Shown: piece after piece, positions 1-10,409 of the stretch
How positions within the stretch are numbered: position 1 is the stretch's first letter
How the letters are laid out: the number at the start of each line of letters is the position of its first letter
Assembly (NCBI GenBank): GCA_937943575.1
Contig: CALEAV010000007.1
Location: forward strand, 9,969 to 73,968
DNA length: 64,000 bases
Origin: an uncultured bacterium
GTDB lineage: Bacteria; Desulfobacterota; Desulfobaccia; Desulfobaccales; 0-14-0-80-60-11
Reading direction: 5' to 3'
Translations under genes and position numbers: made by a program
Notes under the pieces: generated by a model
Told to the model about the DNA's origin: nothing
Seen by the model: only the letters and a program-made list of their open reading frames with translations
Databases searched by the model: none

Positions 1-895
1 ACAGGTCCGCATATTCGGCGGCATAGTCGTCGCAGTACTGGCAGGCGTAGCGCTTCATGAACTCCAGCTTCTCTAAGGGGATGGTGCGCAGCTCGCCGGA
101 TTTCAGATGCACCATCAGGGTTTCCTTGACGTTGATTTTGCGCACCTCCTCCCAGCGGAACCCCCCCAGCTCCATGAGCCGCCGGCGCTCGGCCTCGCCG
201 AAGTGGAAGTTGCCGGTGCAAAAGAGCCCCAGGTGCACGGTGATGGAGCCCGCCGGCACGATCCCCAAGACCTCCATGCGCCGCAAGGCGTTGATCTGGC
301 AGGGCGTGCCCACAAAGGCCACCCGGTTGAGGCGCTTTTTGGCCACCTCCCCCAGCTCGATGATGGAAGGGGAAAACGTGCTGCTCTCCAGGGTGGCATA
401 GACCTTGGAGAAATGGGTCATGCCGTGGATGGTGTCGAAATGGAACCCGGCGGCGTCCAGGATCTCCTCCCGGGTGATGGCCAGCCAGGGCCAGCGCCGG
501 AATTCCCCCACCTTGCGGCTGACGATGGCCCCGTCGATGCGGCCCAGATCAAAGAGGTGCAGGAGCAGGGCAGTCACCACCCCGCCGTCCGTGCCCCGGG
601 CCAACACCCCGGGGTCGGCGGCCCGGGCCACCTGGGTGCTGAGAATGCGGCCCATGGGCGCGCTCCAGGACACCAGGCGCTTGGTCTCCTCGTCCAGCTC
701 GTGAATCTCCGGACAGATGGAGTAGCACAGGCCGCATTCAATGCACTTCTCGATGTCCTTGTAGCGGGGGCGGCCGTCCTCCCCCAGCTCCAGGGCGCCG
801 TAATTGATGGCGGTGCAGAAGGTCACGCAGCCGCCGCAATGGTGGCACAGCCCCGGCTTCTGCACCTCCTGGATGAGATGAAAAAAGGTCTTCAT
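1..895 (-). CDS. FrhB/FdhB-family (coenzyme F420 hydrogenase/dehydrogenase beta subunit-like) protein with N-terminal 2x[4Fe-4S] domain; 3' end beyond the window edge
   Basis: Absent from the ORF track (no stop in window). Manual translation from ATG 895: MKTFFHLIQEVQKPGLCHHCGGCVTFC...KCIECGLCYSICP...TDGGVVTALL...VAFVGTPCQI...LGLFC...ACQYCDDYAAEYADL. GGAGG RBS upstream. Confidence 0.85.
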   Translation of the reverse strand, partial: MKTFFHLIQEVQKPGLCHHCGGCVTFCTAINYGALELGEDGRPRYKDIEKCIECGLCYSICPEIHELDEETKRLVSWSAPMGRILSTQVARAADPGVLARGTDGGVVTALLLHLFDLGRIDGAIVSRKVGEFRRWPWLAITREEILDAAGFHFDTIHGMTHFSKVYATLESSTFSPSIIELGEVAKKRLNRVAFVGTPCQINALRRMEVLGIVPAGSITVHLGLFCTGNFHFGEAERRRLMELGGFRWEEVRKINVKETLMVHLKSGELRTIPLEKLEFMKRYACQYCDDYAAEYADL

Positions 896-912
896 GGCGC
901 CTCCTCCCCGGG

Positions 913-1356
913 TCAGCCGGCAGCTTCCGCCAGCTCCGCTCTTAGCGGCCTCAGCGGATTGGGCCCCAACGCCCGGATCTTCTCGACAAACTGCGTCACC
1001 ACCTGGGCAAACCGGGGAGCCTCGGCGGACGACACCCATTCCAGCGCATAGCGCTCCGGGTCAAGATTCAGGGTCTCCAACACCAGCCGGGTGGCTTCAA
1101 AACGCGACAGGGCTTTGTAATTACCATCCAGGTAATGACAGTCACCCAGATGTCACCCCATCACCAATACCCCATCCACCCCCCGGCTCAGCGCCTTCAC
1201 CACCAGCTCCGGATGCACCATGCCGGAACAATTCACCCGGATCACCCTGAGATTGGGCGGATACTGCAAACGGGACACTCCCGCCAGGTCCGCCCCGGCA
1301 TACGCACACCAGTTGCACAAAAAACCCAGCACCACCGGTTCAAATGTCTCTTCCAT
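913..1356 (-). CDS. mvhD: MvhD/FlpD [2Fe-2S] subunit, probable selenoprotein (TGA at 1153-1155, codon 68)
   Basis: FLCNWCAYAGADLAG...RVNCSG...VLVMG-TGA-HLGDCHYLDGNYKA...EWVSSAEAPRF. The frame stays open after the TGA to a stop at 913, and the TGA falls on the first Cys of the GCHxGDCHY motif. Confidence 0.9.
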
Positions 1357-1480
1357 GTCGCCTCCTTGATTGCGTCGCCGCATGGGGGGCTAACCCGCCC
1401 TTTCCCCCTTCCCCCTTGCGGGTTGGGAGGGGGGCGCCGGGGGAGGGCAGGGCACCAAAGCCCCTGGCCCTTCCCATGAC

Positions 1481-4400
1481 CTACAGCGCCTCCAGCACGG
1501 CCTCCACCTGGGCCTCCAGCTGGGGCAGGGTGAAGCCGTGCACGGTGATGCCCTCCTTGGGGCAGGTGGCCTCGCACAGGCCGCAGCCCTTGCAGAGGGC
1601 CTTGTCGCTCGCCACCCGCCGGTGGCGGCGGCCGTCCTCGCCCTGGTAGTCCTCCAGTTTCAGGGCCAGATACGGGCAGACGTCCACGCACAGGCCGCAG
1701 CCGTCGCAGTGGCTGGTAACCTCGCTCTTGATGGCATCCAGCTCCATGGCGCTTCGGGCCAGAATGATGCCGGCCCGGGTGGCGGCCGCCTTGGCCTGGC
1801 TGACGGCCTCCTCCAAAGGTTTGGGATGGTGGCAGAGGCCGGCCAGAAACACCCCGTCCACGGTGGAGTCCACCGGCCTCAGTTTGGGGTGGGCTTCATT
1901 GAAGAAGCCGTCCTCGTTGACGCTCAGTTTGAAGAGCTCCACCAGCCCCCCGGGGTCGTGGGGCCTGATGCCGCTGGCCAGCACCAGATAGTCGGGGGCA
2001 AGCTGCACCGGCAGCCCCAGGATGGGGTCGGTCACTGTCACCTGGAGCCGGCCGTCGGCCTCCCTTACCTGGGGCTTGTTCTCCAGGGTGTAGGGGATAA
2101 AGATCACCCCCAGCTCCCGGGCCTTGGTGGCGAGGGTCTCCCGCAGGCCGTAGGTGCGAAGGTCCCGGTAGAGGATGTAGACGGGTTTGTCCGGGTCCAG
2201 CTCCTTGAGGCGGATGGCGTTCTCCACCGAGTGGGTGCAGCAGGTGCGGCTGCAGTACATGCGTCCCGGCTCCCGGGAGCCCACACACTGGATGAAGACC
2301 ACCGGGCCGGCGGCCTTGAGGTCCGCCGGTTTTTCCCGGAGCAGGGCGTCCAGCTCCAGGGCGGTGAGCACCCGGGGGTGCCGGCCGTAGAGATATTCCT
2401 CAGGCTTGTACTCCTGGCCGCCGAGGGCCAGGACCGCCACCCCAAAGGAGAGGCTGCGGCTCTCCCCGGCCACGCTGACCTCGCTCCGGAAATTGCCCAC
2501 CGAGCCGGAGACGCTTGTCAGTTCCGCCTGTTTCAGGACCTGGATCTTGGGGTGGTTCTCCACCTGGGCGATGAGGGTGGTGAGGAAGGGCCGCACCTCC
2601 TCCCCCTTCCAGGTGCGGTTGAGGTGCCAGGCGTTGCCGCCCAGCTTGTCGGTCTTTTCCAGCAGGGTGACGGCATAGCCCTGTTCCGCCAGCTCCAGGG
2701 CCGCAGTCAGGCCGGCGACGCCCCCGCCCACCACCAGGGCCTGCTGCACCACCGGCACCGCCTCCCGGGTCAGAGGGTAGTCCAGGGCCGCCTTGGCCAC
2801 CGCCATGCGCACCTGGTCCCGGGCCTTCAGGGTGGCATAGGCGGGGTTGTGCTGGTGCACCCAGGAGCCCTGGTTCCGGATGTTGGCCATCTCCACCAGA
2901 TAGGGGTTGAGACCCGCCTCCCGGAGGGTGTCCTGAAACAGGGCCTCATGGGTGCGGGGCGTGCAGGCGGCGATGACGATGCGGTTGAGGTTCAGCTCCC
3001 TAATCTTGGCGGCGATGAGGTCCTGGGTGTCGGTGGAGCAGGTGAAGAGATTGTTCTCCACGAAGGCCACATGCGGCAGAGTGCGGGCATACTCCGCCAG
3101 CCCCTTGACGTCGATGACCCCGGCGATGTTGATGCCGCAGGAGCAGATGAACACCCCGATGCGGGGTTCGTCGGCGGAGACGTCCCGCTCCGGCGGGTAG
3201 GTCTTCTCCCGGGTGAGGGTGCCCCGGGCCGCGACCAGGCTCCGGGCCGCCTCGCCCGCCGCCGCCGAGGCGTCCATCACCGCCCGGGGGATGGACTTGG
3301 GGGATTCGGCGGCGCCGCAGACATAGATGCCGGGCCGGGAGGTGGCCACCGGATTGAAGCCGTTGGTGGCCACAAAGCGGAACTGGTTCAGGTCCAGGGC
3401 GGCGGTGCGGGCCAGCTCCTGGGCGGAATCCGGGGCCTCCAGGCCCACGGAGAGCACCGCCAGGTCGAAGTCCTCCCGGCGCGGGCGGCCGTCCTCCCCC
3501 ACATATTCCACCTGCACCCCCCGGTTCTTGGGGCCGGGGAGGAGGCTGTGGGGCCGGGCCCGGACGAAGCGCACCCCCTTGGCCTGGGCGTTGACGTAAT
3601 AGCGCTCGAATTCCTTGTTGTGGGCCCGCAAGTCCATGTAAAAGATGGTGGTCTCGGCGCCGGGGAGGTGGTCGGCGGTGACCAGGGCCTGCTTCACCGC
3701 GTACATGCAGCAGACGGTGGAGCAGTAGGGGTTGCCCCGACCGTCCTGGCTGCGGGAGCCGACGCATTGGATCCAGGCCACCCGCCTGGGCTCCTGGTGG
3801 TCCGACGGCCGGATCAGGTGCCCCTGGAAGGGGCCGCCGGCGGAGAGGAGCCGCTCGTACTCCAGGCCGGTGACCACATCGGGCACCCGGCCGTAGCCGT
3901 AGGGGGCCAGCACCCCGGGGTCGAAGGGGCGGTAGCCCGGGGCCAGGATCAGGGCCCCCACCTTCAGGGTGACGGTCTCTCCTTGATCCTCAAAGTTGAT
4001 GGCGCCGGTGGGACAGAACTTCTCGCAGGCCTTGCACTTGCCCTTGGCAAAGTAGAGGCAGGCGTCCGGATCGATGGCGTATTTCAGGGGGACCGTCTGA
4101 CTGTAGTAGATGTAGATGGCCTTGCGCTTGCCCACCCCGAGATTGTAGTCGTCGGCCACCTTTTTGGGGCATTTCTCGGCGCACAGCCCGCAGGCGATGC
4201 ACTTGTCCGGGTCGACGTATCGGGGGTTTTTCCGCAGGGTGACGGTGAAATTGCCGGGGCCGCCGTGGATCTCGGCCACCTGGGACAGCGTGTGCAGCTC
4301 AATGTTCAAGTGCCGACCGCACTCGACCAACTTGGGCGACAGAATTCACATGGCGCAGTCGTTGGTCGGGTAGGTCTTGTCCAGTTGGGCCATCTTGCCG

Positions 4401-4789
4401 CCGATGCCGGCCTTGGCCTCCACCAAGTGGACGTAGTAGCCGGAGTCGGCCAGATCCAGGGCGGCCTGGATGCCGGCGATGCCGCCGCCCACCACCATAA
4501 CCGCACCCACCACATTTCCTGTCATGTTGTCCTCCCGGGTTGCTGGGGCAGCCTGCCTGGGGACCAGGCGGGGTTGGGCCTCCCGCCCTCCGCCCACCTC
4601 CCGGGGGGCCAGGGCCTCGGGGTCCAGGTGGAACTCCTGGCAGAGGTGGGCCAGGTCTTCCGGGGTGAAGACCAAGCCCTTGCCGGGTCCGGGACGGCAA
4701 GGCAGGCGGCCGCTCTTCACCCAGTTGCGGATGGTGTTGCGGTGGACACCGATGGCTTTGGCCAGGGCCACGAGGTGGACCACAAACAT
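1481..4789 (-). CDS. hdrA: Large HdrA-like flavo-iron-sulfur protein, probable selenoprotein (TGA at 4346-4348), with an 88-aa in-frame N-terminal HTH extension; alternative start at 4525
   Basis: [16 protein letters not shown]...[27 protein letters not shown] joins in frame to the 949-aa ORF. That ORF has two QCVGSR...YCS..CC motifs, a second GGGVAG FAD motif, HPKLRPVD and ferredoxin motifs. Confidence 0.9.
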
Positions 4790-4859
4790 GTCGGCGCTCC
4801 TTTTCTGCCTCCGGAGGGGGGGGCGAACTGTGCAATTTGTGCAATGTGCATTTTGTGCT

Positions 4860-4888
4860 TTTTTACCTGGATTGCACCCGCCTGTCAA
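4860..4888 (-). promoter_or_regulatory. sigma70-type promoter for the HTH-hdrA-mvhD-frhB operon
   Basis: TTGACA (4888-4883), 17 nt, TAAAAA (4865-4860); lies just downstream of the nfnB terminator. Confidence 0.6.
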
Positions 4889-4913
4889 GAAAAATCTGCC
4901 CCTCCCGGACAAC

Positions 4914-4941
4914 AAAAAAGGCCGGGGGATCCCCCCCGGCC
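4914..4941 (-). terminator. Rho-independent terminator after nfnB
   Basis: GGCCGGGGG/CCCCCGGCC stem followed by T6 on the minus strand. Confidence 0.75.
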
Positions 4942-4963
4942 CCACCGGCCCAACCTTGCGGCT

Positions 4964-6379
4964 CTACCAGCCGTAGGTCAGGAAATCATGGATGGAGTTG
5001 CTGGCCAGACGGCCGGCGCCCATGGCCAAAATGACCGTGGCCGCACCGGTGACGATGTCCCCCCCGGCCCAGACCCGGGGCTTCATGGTCTTGCCGGTCT
5101 TGGGATCGGCGATGATGTAGCCCCACTTGTTGAGGGCCAGGCCCGGGGTGGCCTTGGTGAGCAGGGGGTTGGCCCCGGAGCCGATGGCGATGACCGCGGT
5201 GTCGATCTCCACGATGAACTCCGAGCCCGGAATGGGAATGGGGCGCCGGCGGCCGGAGGCGTCGGGTTCCCCCAGCTCCATCTTCAGGCATTCCACCCCG
5301 GTGAGGTAGCCGTCTTCGTTGCCCAGGAAGCGCACCGGGTTGGTGAGGAAGAGGAATTCCACCCCCTCCTCCTCGGCGTGGTGGATCTCCGCCGCCCGGG
5401 CCGGCAGCTCGGCGTGGGAGCGCCGGTAGATGATGTAGGAGTGCTCGGCCCCCATGCGCAGGGCGGTGCGGGCTGCGTCCATGGCCACGTTGCCGCCCCC
5501 GAAGGTGGCCACCTTCTTGCCCCTCACCAGCGGCGTGTCGTAGTTGGGGAAGTCGTAGGCCCGCATCAGGTTGGAGCGGGTGAGGTATTCGTTGGCGGAA
5601 TAGACCCCGATATAGTGCTCCCCGGGGATATTGAGGAACATGGGCAGGCCGGCCCCCACCCCCAGAAAGACGGCGTCGAAGCGCTCCAGGAGCTCATCCA
5701 CCGTCTCGGTGCGCCCGATGACCGCGTTCACCTCAATCTTGACGCCCAGGCGCTCGAGATACCGGCACTCATGGGCCACGATCTCCTTGGGGAGGCGGAA
5801 CTCCGGGATGCCGTAGATGAGCACCCCGCCCGGGGCATGCAGGGCCTCAAAGATGGTGACCTCGTGGCCCTTGAGGATGAGGTCGCCGGCCACGGTGAGA
5901 CCTGCGGGGCCGGAGCCCACCACCGCCACCTTCTTGCCGGTGGGCGGCGCCTTGGGGGGCAGGATGTCCCGGCCGTGGAGGCGCTGGTAATCGGCGGCGA
6001 AGCGCTCCAGGTTGCCGATGGCCACCGGCTCGTCCTTTTTCCCCACCACGCACAGGCCTTCGCACTGAATCTCCTGGGGGCAGACCCGGCCGCACACCGC
6101 CGGCAGGGAGTTCTTCTCCCACAGCTTGCGGATGGCCGCCTCAAAATCCCCTTCCTTGATGAACTTGATGAAGCCGGGGATGTCGATCTCCACCGGGCAG
6201 CCCTGCTTGCAGCGGGGGTCCTTGCACTGGATGCAGCGCTCCGCCTCCTTCATGGCCAGCTCGGGGGTGTAGCCGTAGGGCACCTCGTTGAAATTATGGC
6301 GCCGGACCTGGGGGTCCTGCTCCGGCATCTTCTGCCGGGGGATCTTCTCTTTTTTCGGAGCCTTGACTTCTTCAGACAT
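4964..6379 (-). CDS. nfnB: NfnB/SudA large subunit (GltD-like) of electron-bifurcating NADH-dependent ferredoxin:NADP+ oxidoreductase
   Basis: EAERCIQC...CPV, VCGRVCPQEIQCE, VVGSGPAGL, YGIPEFRLPK, GGGNVAMDAAR, AGGDIVTGAATVILAMGAG; paired with nfnA. Confidence 0.9.
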   Translation of the reverse strand: MSEEVKAPKKEKIPRQKMPEQDPQVRRHNFNEVPYGYTPELAMKEAERCIQCKDPRCKQGCPVEIDIPGFIKFIKEGDFEAAIRKLWEKNSLPAVCGRVCPQEIQCEGLCVVGKKDEPVAIGNLERFAADYQRLHGRDILPPKAPPTGKKVAVVGSGPAGLTVAGDLILKGHEVTIFEALHAPGGVLIYGIPEFRLPKEIVAHECRYLERLGVKIEVNAVIGRTETVDELLERFDAVFLGVGAGLPMFLNIPGEHYIGVYSANEYLTRSNLMRAYDFPNYDTPLVRGKKVATFGGGNVAMDAARTALRMGAEHSYIIYRRSHAELPARAAEIHHAEEEGVEFLFLTNPVRFLGNEDGYLTGVECLKMELGEPDASGRRRPIPIPGSEFIVEIDTAVIAIGSGANPLLTKATPGLALNKWGYIIADPKTGKTMKPRVWAGGDIVTGAATVILAMGAGRLASNSIHDFLTYGW

Positions 6380-6405
6380 GCGTCATCTCCTCCCTTGTGT
6401 CTCGG

Positions 6406-7260
6406 TCAGCTCTTGTGGGAGCAGCCCTGCCCCAGGCTGGCTTTGAAGCGGTCGTAGGCCAGCTTCTCTTCCGGCAGATAGGAACGCAGCCTCAGGGTGA
6501 GCTCGTCGAAGTCCACCTGATGGCCGTCAAACTCGGGGCCGTCCACGCAGGCGAACTGCATCCTGCCGCCCACCTGCACCCGGCAGCAGCCGCACATGCC
6601 GGTGCCGTCCAGCATGATGGGGTTGAGGCTCACCAGGGTCTTGACGCCGAACTCCTTGGTCATCTGGCTGCAGAACTTCATCATGGGCACCGGGCCGATG
6701 CACACCGCCAGGCCGATGTCCCGGTTCTCGGTGAGGACCTTCTTCAGCATCTCGGTGACGAAGCCCTTGTGCCCGTAAGAGCCGTCATCGGTGCAGATAT
6801 GCAGCTCGTGGGAGGCGGCCCGCATCTTGTCCTCCAGGATGAGCAGCTCCTTGGTGCGGGCGCCGATGATGGCGATGACGTGGTTGCCCAACTGCTTCAG
6901 CCCCCGGGTGATGGGGTGCAGCACTGCGATGCCGGTGCCGCCGCCGACGCAGACCACCTTCCCCACTTTCTCCAGGTGGGTGGGCTGCCCCAGGGGCCCG
7001 ATGACGTCAAGATACGCATCCCCCACCTTCAGGGTCTTGAACAGGGCGGTGCTCTTGCCCACCACGGCGTAGATGATGTTGATGAGACCCCGTTCCGGAT
7101 CGGTGTCGGCCATGGTCAGGGGGATGCGCTCCCCCGTCTCGTTGGCCCGCAGGATGACGAACTGGCCCGGTTTGGCTTTCTTGGCAATCTTGGGGGCCCT
7201 GACCCAGTTGCTGATGATGGTGCCCTGGGCCATTTCCTCGCGTTCCACAATTTCAAACAT
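6406..7260 (-). CDS. nfnA: NfnA/SudB small subunit (FAD, [2Fe-2S])
   Basis: KPGQFVILR, GERIPLT, GGGTGIA, GPVPMMK, LNPIMLDGTGMCGCCRV...FACVDGPEFDGH. Confidence 0.9.
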   Translation of the reverse strand: MFEIVEREEMAQGTIISNWVRAPKIAKKAKPGQFVILRANETGERIPLTMADTDPERGLINIIYAVVGKSTALFKTLKVGDAYLDVIGPLGQPTHLEKVGKVVCVGGGTGIAVLHPITRGLKQLGNHVIAIIGARTKELLILEDKMRAASHELHICTDDGSYGHKGFVTEMLKKVLTENRDIGLAVCIGPVPMMKFCSQMTKEFGVKTLVSLNPIMLDGTGMCGCCRVQVGGRMQFACVDGPEFDGHQVDFDELTLRLRSYLPEEKLAYDRFKASLGQGCSHKS

Positions 7261-7381
7261 AGGCGCATCTCCTCACTTCGGGAAAATGGTGGCCTCGCCT
7301 TGCCACTCCCCCAGGCTGTCGGCGGAACGGCCCGCTGCTCTTGTAATCGTATCCTCTTACCACGGCCGCCTGCCGGGGTTC

Positions 7382-7399
7382 AAGTGATAAATATCACAA
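7382..7399. promoter_or_regulatory. Rex-like palindromic operator upstream of nfnA
   Basis: Minus strand TTGTGATATTTATCACTT with core GTGATA-TT-TATCAC; resembles TTGTGAA-N4-TTCACAA. Confidence 0.5.
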
Positions 7400-7509
7400 T
7401 TATCAAAAAGAGGGAAGCGGCCGCCGGGCCCGGTAGGCCCGCCCCCAAGGCCGCCCCCTGCCATCCGGCCGGTCCGGTCTGCAGGGGAGGCCCGAGAGGG
7501 GACCCCCCC

Positions 7510-7546
7510 AAAAAAAGGCCGGCCTCCCCCACAAGAGAAGCCGGCC
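7510..7546 (-). terminator. Rho-independent terminator after fhs
   Basis: GGCCGGC...GCCGGCC stem followed by a T run on the minus strand. Confidence 0.7.
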
Positions 7547-7590
7547 GGCGCCCGGCCGGGGAGCGCCCGGCCGGGAGGAAGGGTAGCTCC

Positions 7591-9375
7591 TTAGAAGAGG
7601 CCGATGACCTTGCCGGTCTTGACGTCCACATCCACCCGCCGGAAGGCCGGGTCGGAGGCGGTGCCGGGCATGAGGCTGATGGCGCCGCACACCGGGCAGA
7701 TGAACTTGGCGCCGCTGTAGACCAGGAAGTCCCGGACGGGGAGCCGCCAGCCCTTGGGCACGCCCTTCTTGGTGGGGTCGTGGCTGAGGCTCAGGTGGGT
7801 CTTCACCATCATGGTGGCGTATTCGTTGTACTTGGGATCCTTCTCGAAGCGCTCGGCCTTGGCCACCGCTTCGGGGAGGAAGTCCACCCCGTCGGCGCCG
7901 TAGACTTCCTTGGCGATGACTTCCACCCGCTGGCGCAGGGGCATCTCATTGGGATAGAGGAACTTGAAGTCGTTCTTCTCCTTGCAGGCCTCCATGACCG
8001 CGTCGGCGAATTCCAGGGCGCCTTCGCCGCCGAACTGCCAGTGCCGGGAGACCGCCACCCGGGCCCCTTCGGCCTCGCACACCCGGCGGATGAGGTCGTG
8101 CTCCTCTTTGGAGTCGAAATGGAAGGCGTTGATGCACACCACCGGGTTGATGCCCGCCTTCTTGATGGTGCGGATATGGTGCACGGCGTTCTGGACGCCG
8201 TCTTCCAGCCACTTGAAGGTCTGGGGCGACGCTTCGAAGTATTCCTTGGGGATGGGCTTGCCGGGCGGGCAGGGGAGGGCCCCGGCGTTGACGCCGTGGT
8301 GCTTGAGACCCCGCACCGTGGTGGTGAGCACCGCCACATGGGGTTTGAGGCCGCTGAAGCGGCATTTCACGTTCCAGAACTTCTCAAAGCCGATGTCGGC
8401 GCCGAAGCCCGATTCGGTGACGTGGTAGTCAAAGAGCTTCAGGCCGATCTGGTCGGCGATGATGGAGGACTGGCCCACGGCGATGTTGGCGAAGGGACCG
8501 GCGTGCACAAAGACCGGCTGCTTCTCCACCGTCTGCATGAGAGTGGGGTTGATGGAGGGCACCATCCAGGCGGTCATGGCATTGCCCACTTCCAGGTCGC
8601 CGGTGGTGATGGGGTTGCCCCGCTTGTCATAGCACACGGTGATGTTGTTGAGGCGCTCCTTCAGGTCGGCCAGGGAGGTGGTGATGGACAGGATGGCCAT
8701 GACCTCCGAGGACACCGCAATGCCGAACTTGGAGGCCATCATGAAGCCATCCATCTTGCCGCCGATGCCGATGATGATGTTGCGCAGCGCCTGGGCGCAG
8801 AAGTCGATGATCCAGCCCATCTCGAAGTTCTTGGGGTCAATGTCCAGGCGCTTCAGGTTCCGCTTCGCCAGCTGCTCATCGGTGTAGTTGAACTCATGCT
8901 GCAGGCGGGAGGTGGCGGCCACCATGGCCAGGTTGTGGGCGTTCATGATGTTGTTGATGTCGCCCGTCAACCCCAGGGAGAACTCGGTCATGGGGATGAG
9001 GAGCGAAATGCCGCCGCCGGCCGCCGTGCCCTTGATGTTCATGGTGGGGCCGCCGGAGGGTTGCCGGAGGGCCCCGCCGACGTTCACCCCCCGCTTGCCC
9101 AGACCCTCAATGAGACCCAGGGAGGTGGTGGATTTGCCCTCGCCCAGGGGGGTGGGGGTGATGGCGGTGACGTCGATGTAGTAGCCGTCGGGTTTGTCCT
9201 TCAGGCGCTCCAGGCACTTCAGGTAGTCCACGCGACCGATTTTCTGCCCGTAGGGGATGCGCTCCTCCTTGGGGATGCCCAGCATCTCGCACATGTCGTC
9301 GAAGGGGATCATCTCCGCTTCGGCGATTTCGGCGATCTGCCAGTCTTTCATGGTGACCGGATCATACTTTGCCAT
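7591..9375 (-). CDS. fhs: Formate-tetrahydrofolate ligase
   Basis: [59 protein letters not shown]. Confidence 0.97.
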
Positions 9376-9737: not shown

Positions 9738-10409
9738 ATGGTAGTCGCGGAATCCAAGCCTGTCAGCGAAATCCTGGAGATGATCAAGGACTGCAAGAAA
9801 GTGGTGGTGGCCGGATGCAAAGGCTGCGTCACCGTCTGCAACTCCGGCGGCGAAAAGGAAGTGGGCATCCTGGCCTCAGAGTTGCGTCTGGCCCGCAAGG
9901 TGGCCGGCACCGACCTGGAGGTGCTGGAATACACCTGCGAGCGCCAGTGTGACCCGGAATACATCGAGCCCCTGGACGATTTGGTCAAGGATGCGGACGC
10001 AGTGGTCTCCATCGCCTGCAGCGTCGGACCCCAGTACATCGCCGCCCGGTATCCCTTCCTGCCGGTGTTCCCGGGCCTCAACACCGTCTTCATCGGCGGC
10101 GCCGCCGAACACGGCGTCTGGAAGGAGTATTGCCAGGCCTGCGGTCAGTGCATCATCGGGGATTTCGGCGGATTGTGCCCCGTGGCCCGCTGCGCCAAGT
10201 CCCTGATGAACGGCCCCTGCGGCGGCTCCTCGGGGGGCAAATGCGAAGTGGGCAAGGGCACCATCGACTGCATCTGGCATCTCATCTATGAGCGCCTCAA
10301 GAACCTGGGGCAGCTCTCCAGGCTGGAAAACCCCTGGGGCTTCAAGAACTGGTCCACCAGCCGGGACGGCGGGCCCCGCACCATGATCCGGGAGGAGTTA
10401 CGGAAATGA
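9738..10409 (+). CDS. metV: MetV (methylene-THF reductase-associated Fe-S subunit)
   Basis: GCKGCVTVC, RQCDPEY, CQACGQC...CPVARCAKSLMNGPCGGS...CIW; overlaps the metF start (ATGA). Confidence 0.9.
   Translation: MVVAESKPVSEILEMIKDCKKVVVAGCKGCVTVCNSGGEKEVGILASELRLARKVAGTDLEVLEYTCERQCDPEYIEPLDDLVKDADAVVSIACSVGPQYIAARYPFLPVFPGLNTVFIGGAAEHGVWKEYCQACGQCIIGDFGGLCPVARCAKSLMNGPCGGSSGGKCEVGKGTIDCIWHLIYERLKNLGQLSRLENPWGFKNWSTSRDGGPRTMIREELRK

Follow-up and report, generated by a model that had tools for sequence, protein, structure and literature searches.

A single open reading frame on the minus strand of a 64,000-nucleotide stretch of DNA from an uncultured Desulfobaccales bacterium (positions 9,969 to 73,968 of contig CALEAV010000007.1, assembly GCA_937943575.1; hereafter the window) joins a small winged helix-turn-helix (HTH) domain to an HdrA-like flavoprotein. 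We found that this fusion is conserved in related genomes, that it is under purifying selection, and that an array of GCACA direct repeats, unique in the genome, lies immediately after the -10 box of its promoter. The same pairing of HTH and repeats was found with three different fusion partners. We consider it moderately likely that the HTH, a winged helix resembling those of BldC and Xis, allows HdrA to autoregulate the hdrA-mvhD-frhB-[NiFeSe] hydrogenase operon by way of this array. An original prediction, made from the DNA letters alone, had described an HTH-HdrA fusion with two translation starts, and the repeat array (4829-4858) is the main addition of the present analysis.

An HTH domain is fused in frame to HdrA

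The gene extends over positions 1481-4789 and encodes the HTH, a linker, and an HdrA-like part. Its first ATG (4789-4787) follows the Shine-Dalgarno (SD) sequence AAGGAG (4802-4797) at a spacing of 7 nt, and this start site (4787-4802) is common to all 24 related loci, in both the start column and the SD. From this ATG one frame runs without a stop through the HTH (residues 1-60, positions 4610-4789) and a variable, disordered linker (residues 61-88, positions 4526-4609) to a second ATG (4525-4523), and then to a TGA (4348-4346) after residue 147. When the TGA is read as selenocysteine (Sec), the frame reaches a stop at 1483-1481 and the product has 1102 amino acids (aa) with U148. The fusion, the two starts with a ribosome-binding site each, and the HTH-bearing 147-aa frame ahead of the UGA had all been described in the original prediction and were confirmed.

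The part following the linker contains two flavin adenine dinucleotide (FAD)/NAD(P) modules and several 4Fe-4S domains according to Pfam. It shows the hallmarks of HdrA, namely the FAD-binding GxGxxG, the Cys or Sec in DCxM(C/U)I, the ferredoxin inserts, and an MvhD partner encoded directly downstream. Of the NCBIfam models tested (NF041778 for HdrA and NF040770 for HdrA2), HdrA2 matched best with 971.5 bits, under its cut-off of 1100, and HdrA gave 715.8 bits against a cut-off of 1400, which was not reached. On these scores the protein is an HdrA-like homologue and not an equivalog. The HdrA2 match begins at residue 89, which corresponds to profile position 134, so the HTH and linker occupy the place of the N-terminal Fe-S domain of archaeal HdrA.

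The joining of two genes could in principle be an artefact, either of assembly or of a recent stop loss that connected a separate regulator gene to hdrA. This is exceedingly improbable. The frame was kept up to the same TGA in 24 of 24 related loci, which is the stronger proof that no stop was lost. In addition, DNA contigs from two public runs span positions 4310-5100 with 0 and 1 differences and without indels; these are assembled contigs, and the runs may be the source sample itself. The fusion was also found in Desulfobacterales and in full-length forms with Cys at the Sec position, and we rejected the artefact explanation on these grounds.

Of 4012 candidates in a search with the 147-aa sequence, 3888 proteins reached E <= 0.001. 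The 120 best short matches (139-248 aa) had 100% query coverage and 60-100% identity, and all of them contained an HRNT motif. Among the 120 best long matches, 32 covered at least 94% of residues 1-147. These 32 proteins, of 609-1276 aa and mostly from Desulfobacterales-type records, read through the Sec position and have Cys there where the printed N-terminus reaches it. Cys forms of 1100-1145 aa that carry the HTH are present in Desulfobacterales. When one genome per species was searched, 9 of the 80 loci retained matched from residue 1 (residue 9 in L013) to residue 146 or 147, and these came from Desulfobacca, Desulfobacterales, and Desulfobulbus records. The fusion is present in a record of Desulfobacca acetoxidans (L006). 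Within the order of the window's host, 24 of 83 genomes matched over residues 1-147 and two more (G074 and G071) were recognized on inspection. The architecture predicted from one sequence is thus carried by at least 26 of the 83 genomes.

We compared the window gene with nine relatives using pairwise Nei-Gojobori estimates. The ratio of nonsynonymous to synonymous substitution rates (dN/dS) was 0.09-0.38 in the HTH and 0.05-0.28 in the HdrA N-terminus, and 0.38-1.24 in the linker. The linker was found to change in length by whole codons only. The low dN/dS of the HTH together with the whole-codon indels suggests that the upstream ATG is translated and that selection maintains the HTH within the protein. 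By these comparisons of sequences, the fusion is real, old, conserved, and under purifying selection.

The domain resembles MerR-type winged helices

Residues 9-48 matched the Pfam family HTH_17 (PF12728) with 33.6 bits, above the gathering cut-off of 27 for membership, and MerR_1 with 24.2 bits (cut-off 21.6). In an AlphaFold2 model based on 110 sequences, residues 1-60 had a predicted local distance difference test (pLDDT) score of 85-88 and followed the order strand-helix-helix-wing-helix, and linker residues 66-89 had a pLDDT below 50. The best Foldseek rows were a RacA-DNA complex (E 0.06, probability 0.98), a BldC-DNA complex (TM-score 0.67 on the target), Pukovnik Xis, and MerR N-domains. 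In VIA-align comparisons the N-domain of Psf4 scored highest (Z 5.5), followed by BldC (Z 5.0, root-mean-square deviation 2.2, 49 of 52 residues), then by TipAL-N, Xis, and the GIsul2 excisionase (Z 4.1), and by RdfS (Z 3.7). Searching PDB chains with the sequence of the 88-aa N-terminus gave nothing significant, with RacA as the best relevant entry (E 0.29). The modelled fold is consistent with a winged helix of the MerR/Xis/BldC type, and structure alone is no proof. Many of the more distant relatives of the HTH (P0244, P0246-P0251, P0257, and others) repeat the HTH_17 motif in tandem, with 3 to 18 copies in a protein of 190-1040 aa.

GCACA repeats follow the promoter of the fusion gene

A promoter-like site upstream of the gene (4860-4888, minus strand), recognized by eye and by homology, consists of TTGACA (4888-4883), a 17-nt spacer, and TAAAAA (4865-4860). 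Relatives have TTGAC(A), about 17 nt, and TATAAT or TATATT at the same place. One base past the -10 box begins a putative operator (4829-4858, minus strand), which we identified from the sequence and its conservation in relatives. It contains four GCACA direct repeats (4858-4854, 4849-4845, 4842-4838, and 4833-4829) at spacings of 9, 7, and 9 bp. This is the only cluster of four GCAC[AT] copies within 40 bp in the 2.58-Mb genome, and a regulon search of the same genome uncovered no second array with A/T-spaced units. An intrinsic terminator (4918-4943, minus strand) lies between the array and the upstream gltD/sudA-like gene, with an 11-pair stem (9 G-C) and a T run; the scan that called it found 5 terminator-like sites where 0.7 were expected. 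The hdrA operon is thereby separated from the upstream gene as an independent transcription unit.

In the window's family, all 18 loci have TTGAC(A), a TATAAT-like box, and then repeats with the consensus WWT-GCACA-A-W. The number of strict copies per locus varied from two to five, and some units were degenerate. In a sister family, a hydrogenase maturation protease gene (HycI) precedes the HTH gene, and the same promoter with 2+2 repeats was found upstream of the protease gene at all 5 loci retrieved. The 23 arrays compared contain 78 units, and of the 56 spacings between neighbouring units, 39 were exactly 9 bp, 4 were 18 bp, and 3 were 27 bp. We then searched the 83 genomes of the order with a strict four-unit pattern, which was found in 21 genomes, compared with 2 for the reversed control. 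The match was directly upstream of the HTH gene in 17 of the 21 genomes, and in G071 it was on another contig. The matches in G039, G063, and G067 look like chance occurrences or tandem repeats.

These observations suggest a simple route of control. The HTH, held on its flexible linker, would bind the four 9-bp-phased repeats right after the -10 box, where they would overlap the transcription start, and the bound HTH would repress the operon that runs from hdrA through mvhD and frhB to the [NiFeSe] hydrogenase. Binding of the HTH to the array is the most likely explanation of the repeats, and it is strongly, if indirectly, supported by their being unique in the genome and conserved at the promoter. 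The protein would then be an autoregulator with a single target, borne by the first structural protein of the operon, and thus a 'trigger enzyme' in the sense of PutA. A single target is indicated because the genome has one such array and encodes no second close HTH of the type (weak matches only, the best at E 0.006). We infer the binding of the array, the repression, and the use of both starts. If a signal modulates the binding, redox state (to which the original prediction had tentatively linked transcription), assembly into the complex, and selenium are candidates.

The same HTH and repeats occur with other partners

The same HTH and linker were found fused to an FrhB/FdhB-like protein of 466 aa (L032:1501-2901, plus strand, and G003:C402:4924-5160). 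The L032 protein has an HTH_17 match of 29.1 bits followed by FrhB domains, and the same GCACA array is located upstream in both L032 and G003. This operon continues downstream with a hydrogenase small subunit gene and seems to lack hdrA and mvhD.

A scan of 1.84 billion representative proteins with the 60-aa domain gave 175 matches at E <= 0.001. These included fusions to an HdrC/HdrD-like Fe-S protein, such as P0253 (HTH_17 43.4 bits). In 401 sampled genomes of the phylum, the full-length HTH-HdrD-like fusion was identified at 18 loci (L130-L146 and L148, with the HTH at about 1530-1540). A GCAC[AT]-N4-GCAC[AT] pair was found upstream on the coding strand in 16 of these 18 loci, which belong to other families, mostly before a protease gene. 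There were 19 such pairs on the coding strand in 27.6 kb of upstream sequence, compared with 0 in 41.7 kb of downstream sequence. Arrays were also found at the Sec-type HTH-hdrA loci of Desulfobacterales.

Three Sec-hdrA loci of the order that are not fused (L112, L113, and L115) had no such pair within 420 nt upstream. They carry TGGCAT-N5-TCGC about 60-90 nt before the start, a sequence which, read by eye against the sigma-54 consensus, we take to be sigma-54-like. A promoter of this kind would mean that the genes without the HTH follow a control logic unlike that of the fused genes.

The recurrence of the repeats bears on the possibility that the HTH does not bind DNA at all and is instead a structural or docking module of the Hdr/Mvh complex, in which case the array would be the site of an unlinked regulator. 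In a related bifurcating complex, a winged HTH of the BamF subunit is reported to contact protein (bioRxiv 10.64898/2026.04.10.717634), and the structural matches of our domain to DNA-binding folds are weak. However, the same type of HTH is found on three unrelated partners (HdrA, FrhB-like, and HdrD-like) together with the same promoter repeats, a distribution for which docking onto a single complex does not easily account. The array is unique in the genome, where the next HTH of the type appears only at E 0.006, and the linker is disordered and variable. We consider a docking role unlikely.

An internal start could provide HdrA without the HTH

The internal SD GGGAGG (4536-4531) and the ATG of Met89 (4525-4523), with a 5-nt spacer, form a possible second start (4523-4536, minus strand) that is conserved among the loci. 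The Met89 column is ATG in 12 loci and GTG in 7, with GGAGG 5 nt ahead, so that SD and start were kept in 19 of 24 loci. In the other 5, both were gone (CGC in four and CTT in one). The residues encoded across the SD vary (R/K/Q-E-E/D/V/A). Preservation of the SD while its encoded residues vary points to selection at the nucleotide level, that is, to a ribosome-binding site. In the 120 short proteins the column holds V in 51, M in 20, R in 45, and another residue in 3, and 1 is unaligned. In this genome and most of its relatives, the internal SD with its ATG or GTG probably also yields HdrA without the HTH, so that only part of the enzyme pool would be tagged and most of it possibly untagged.

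Two isoforms, as the original prediction proposed, are therefore plausible for this genome from the conservation of SD and start in 19 of 24 loci, but the HTH is not bound to a two-isoform design, since 45 of the 120 short proteins have lost the internal start. Contigs of relatives from metatranscriptome libraries covered 4608-4779 and 4244-4502 as separate pieces.

The linker offers another way to separate the two parts. If it were cut, the gene would produce a precursor of a free small regulator and a plain HdrA, and the fusion would serve only to secure their co-expression. In favour of this are the disorder and variability of the linker and its high content of Pro, Ala, and Arg, as well as the internal start, which shows that HdrA without the HTH is tolerated. 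On the other hand, the linker alignment of the window gene and its relatives has no conserved cleavage motif, and a stop codon between the two parts would have the same effect, yet none of the 24 loci contains one. We regard such a precursor as quite improbable.

Observations that weigh against autoregulation

A number of observations weigh against autoregulation through the array and the use of both starts. At the promoter, a scan of 4300-5100 called no sigma-70-like site, and the -10 box lacks the final T. Plain GCAC-N4-GCAC pairs are frequent in the coding DNA of this genome (31, compared with 4 in the reversed control); these pairs probably arise as the antisense of CxxC codons, and only A/T-spaced intergenic pairs are diagnostic. 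No repeat pair was found in the 1.5 kb examined at two HdrD-like loci (L142 and L144), nor within 1.5 kb at two Cys-type Desulfobacterales loci (L012 and L013). The Cys-type Desulfobacterales forms that lack the GCACA pair carry the sequence HRNTVTNW. Array and HTH gene invariably occur in cis, and a different factor may bind the array despite their co-occurrence.

With regard to the protein, a Foldseek search of PDB with the HTH model gave no match at E <= 0.001, and the VIA Z-scores of at most 5.5 are graded as middling by the tool. The RNA evidence for the HTH part is a single 172-nt contig of a relative from a metatranscriptome library. The loss of the internal start characterizes a large clade with the sequence 'RPGK' (the 45 proteins above). 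HdrA can arise in this clade only as part of the fusion, which must therefore be a working subunit in its own right. The internal SD could also be a relic of an older gene boundary.

The operon encodes three selenoproteins

The in-frame TGA at 4346-4348 (minus strand) lies in the motif TNDCAM-U-ILSPK and encodes Sec 148, judging from the Cys in homologues and from the Sec machinery of the genome, which encodes selB (351.9 bits, cut-off 242) and tRNA-Sec. Downstream of the UGA, a hairpin with a GGUCG loop in the minimum-free-energy fold (4304-4329, minus strand) is a candidate bacterial Sec insertion sequence, although its energy was no better than that of shuffled sequences (z-score -0.04) and is not significant alone. 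The UGA is thus a Sec codon. In public records the 147-aa fragments that end before the UGA are named 'hypothetical protein', 'transposase-like protein', or 'NADPH-dependent 2,4-dienoyl-CoA reductase/sulfur reductase-like enzyme'. Gene callers cut HTH-HdrA proteins at the Sec codon, and systematic misnaming is the result, which is a warning for annotation. In 11 of the 18 HTH-HdrD-like genes, an in-frame TGA follows the HTH at ...LLLPE-TGA-GHAY(Y/F)ATR, with about 180 further in-frame codons, and these fusions are probably selenoproteins that gene callers have shortened as well.

The genes hdrA, mvhD, frhB/fdhB-like, hydrogenase small subunit, and [NiFeSe] large subunit follow one another on the same strand. 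The mvhD gene (913-1383, minus strand; FlpD family, PF02662, 178.8 bits) has its own in-frame TGA (1155-1153) in ...VLVMG-U-HLGDCHY, owing to which it is split into two pieces in open reading frame (ORF) lists made with translation table 11. The frhB/fdhB-like gene (1-895, minus strand; FrhB_FdhB_C 123.6 bits) runs off the window. Further downstream, profile matches were obtained to Oxidored_q6 (95.9 bits) and NiFeSe_Hases (108.6 bits). The [NiFeSe] hydrogenase large subunit gene, identified from its sequence and profile match, lies outside the window on the minus strand (G000:C7, about 7230-8639; L129:3234-4640), and its product ends with RCYDP-TGA-LSCATH. With a TGA in hdrA, mvhD, and the large subunit gene, the operon encodes three selenoproteins.

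The HTH is located 5' of the first UGA of this operon, and the original prediction had proposed a selenium-responsive switch. In the form considered here, failed Sec insertion at UGA148 would leave a 147-aa HTH fragment or a stalled nascent chain that represses an operon whose selenoproteins could then not be completed. The three Sec proteins (HdrA, MvhD, and the [NiFeSe] large subunit), the TGA in all 24 loci of the order, and the in-frame TGA of the 11 HdrD-like genes are in keeping with it, as is the finding that arrays were present at Sec-type Desulfobacterales loci and absent at the two Cys-type ones examined. However, the HTH is kept in the Cys forms of 1100-1145 aa and is therefore not tied to Sec, and no in-frame TGA was seen in the HTH-FrhB fusion. 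The fragment would bear 59 residues of an incomplete Rossmann fold, which was modelled with low confidence. Sec is common in the Hdr proteins of the phylum in any case, as described for Desulfobacterium autotrophicum (PMC2702500). A selenium switch is in our view improbable.

A bolder form of the proposal would make the HTH a co-translational sensor of Sec insertion, since it emerges before the first UGA of a three-selenoprotein operon, and failure would leave the array occupied. The released 147-aa fragment, or a nascent chain tethered beside its own promoter, would stop transcription, and when decoding succeeds the HTH would depart with the enzyme once assembled. Untagged HdrA from the internal start would keep the sensor from stifling expression. 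We give this form, too, only a small chance of being correct.

Upstream of the fusion gene on the same strand are a gltD/NfnB-like gene (4964-6379), a sudB-like FAD/2Fe-2S gene (6406-7260), and a gene for formate-tetrahydrofolate ligase (7591-9375). This region (4964-9375) is a neighbourhood of the Wood-Ljungdahl type, with gene names taken from reading the translations only. A gene for a sigma-54-dependent response regulator (receiver and AAA+ domains, judged from the translation; L129:12-1230, plus strand, corresponding to G000:C7, about 4011-5229) faces the hydrogenase operon from beyond its 3' end.

Relation to known regulators

The closest parallel in site geometry is BldC of Streptomyces (MerR-like, 68 aa; PDB 6AMK and 6AMA), which likewise has little more than a winged HTH of the MerR type, lacking both coiled coil and effector domain. 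On direct repeats with a 9-position unit, BldC subunits line up head to tail, four per 36-mer (PMC5859096). This geometry matches that of the arrays described here, where 39 of 56 spacings are 9 bp and binding is predicted. BldC is a free-standing, pleiotropic regulator that recognizes an AATT-type repeat, whereas the HTH described here is fused in proteins of 466-1145 aa and is associated with GCACA(A) at a single genomic site. Identity in the structural alignments was 16-20%, and there was no match at the level of sequence.

Excisionases and other recombination directionality factors (Xis, RdfS, and GIsul2 Xis) belong to the same Pfam family, HTH_17, and matched the fold at Z 3.7-4.1. Xis typically binds phased direct repeats. 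These proteins have an integrase partner and att sites, whereas here the neighbours are metabolic and the repeats are located at a promoter. No integrase was found in the ORFs listed for positions 1-9000 of the window or for L129, which include gltD-like, sudB-like, fhs, mvhD, frhB, and hydrogenase genes, and neither an att site nor a mobile element adjoins the gene. Classical MerR proteins have a long coiled coil, a C-terminal effector domain, and a palindromic operator in a long spacer; here the winged HTH is followed by a disordered linker, the direct repeats come after the -10 box, and the promoter spacer is 17 nt.

For the logic of control, the closest comparison is with PutA and BirA, enzymes that autoregulate their operon through an N-terminal DNA-binding domain of their own and that, like RbkR, are counted among the trigger enzymes. 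PutA has a ribbon-helix-helix domain and a redox-dependent switch, whereas the protein described here has a MerR-like winged HTH and its internal start may give untagged enzyme. The fusion thus has a site geometry like that of BldC and Xis and a logic of the PutA type, and it is a member of neither family.

With HdrA and HdrA2 of methanogens and the Sec-HdrA reported for Desulfobacterium autotrophicum, the protein shares the FAD module, the ferredoxin inserts, the Cys or Sec in DCxM(C/U)I, and an mvhD gene directly downstream (PMC2702500). Archaeal HdrA has an N-terminal Fe-S domain of about 130 residues, which is absent here and replaced by the HTH and linker. The literature searched, supplements aside and represented in part by partial texts, gave no account of an HTH on HdrA. 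In the available portion of a preprint on HdrA domain architectures (501 sequences and 11 architectures), the words 'DNA', 'helix', and 'HTH' were not mentioned.

Implications for the control of Hdr operons

Flavin-based electron bifurcation in anaerobes centres on flavoproteins of the HdrA type. To our knowledge, little has been reported on how HdrA-type operons are controlled in bacteria. The present analysis offers a concrete cis element, a candidate enzyme-borne regulator, and a natural pair of possible isoforms for the hdrA operon. If autoregulation through the GCACA array is correct, a domain of the BldC/Xis type joins the short list of enzyme-borne autoregulators. The pairing of HTH and repeats on HdrA, HdrD-like, and FrhB-like genes of several families suggests that this mode of control would be general for the Hdr/Mvh hydrogenase operons found in sulfate reducers and related organisms.

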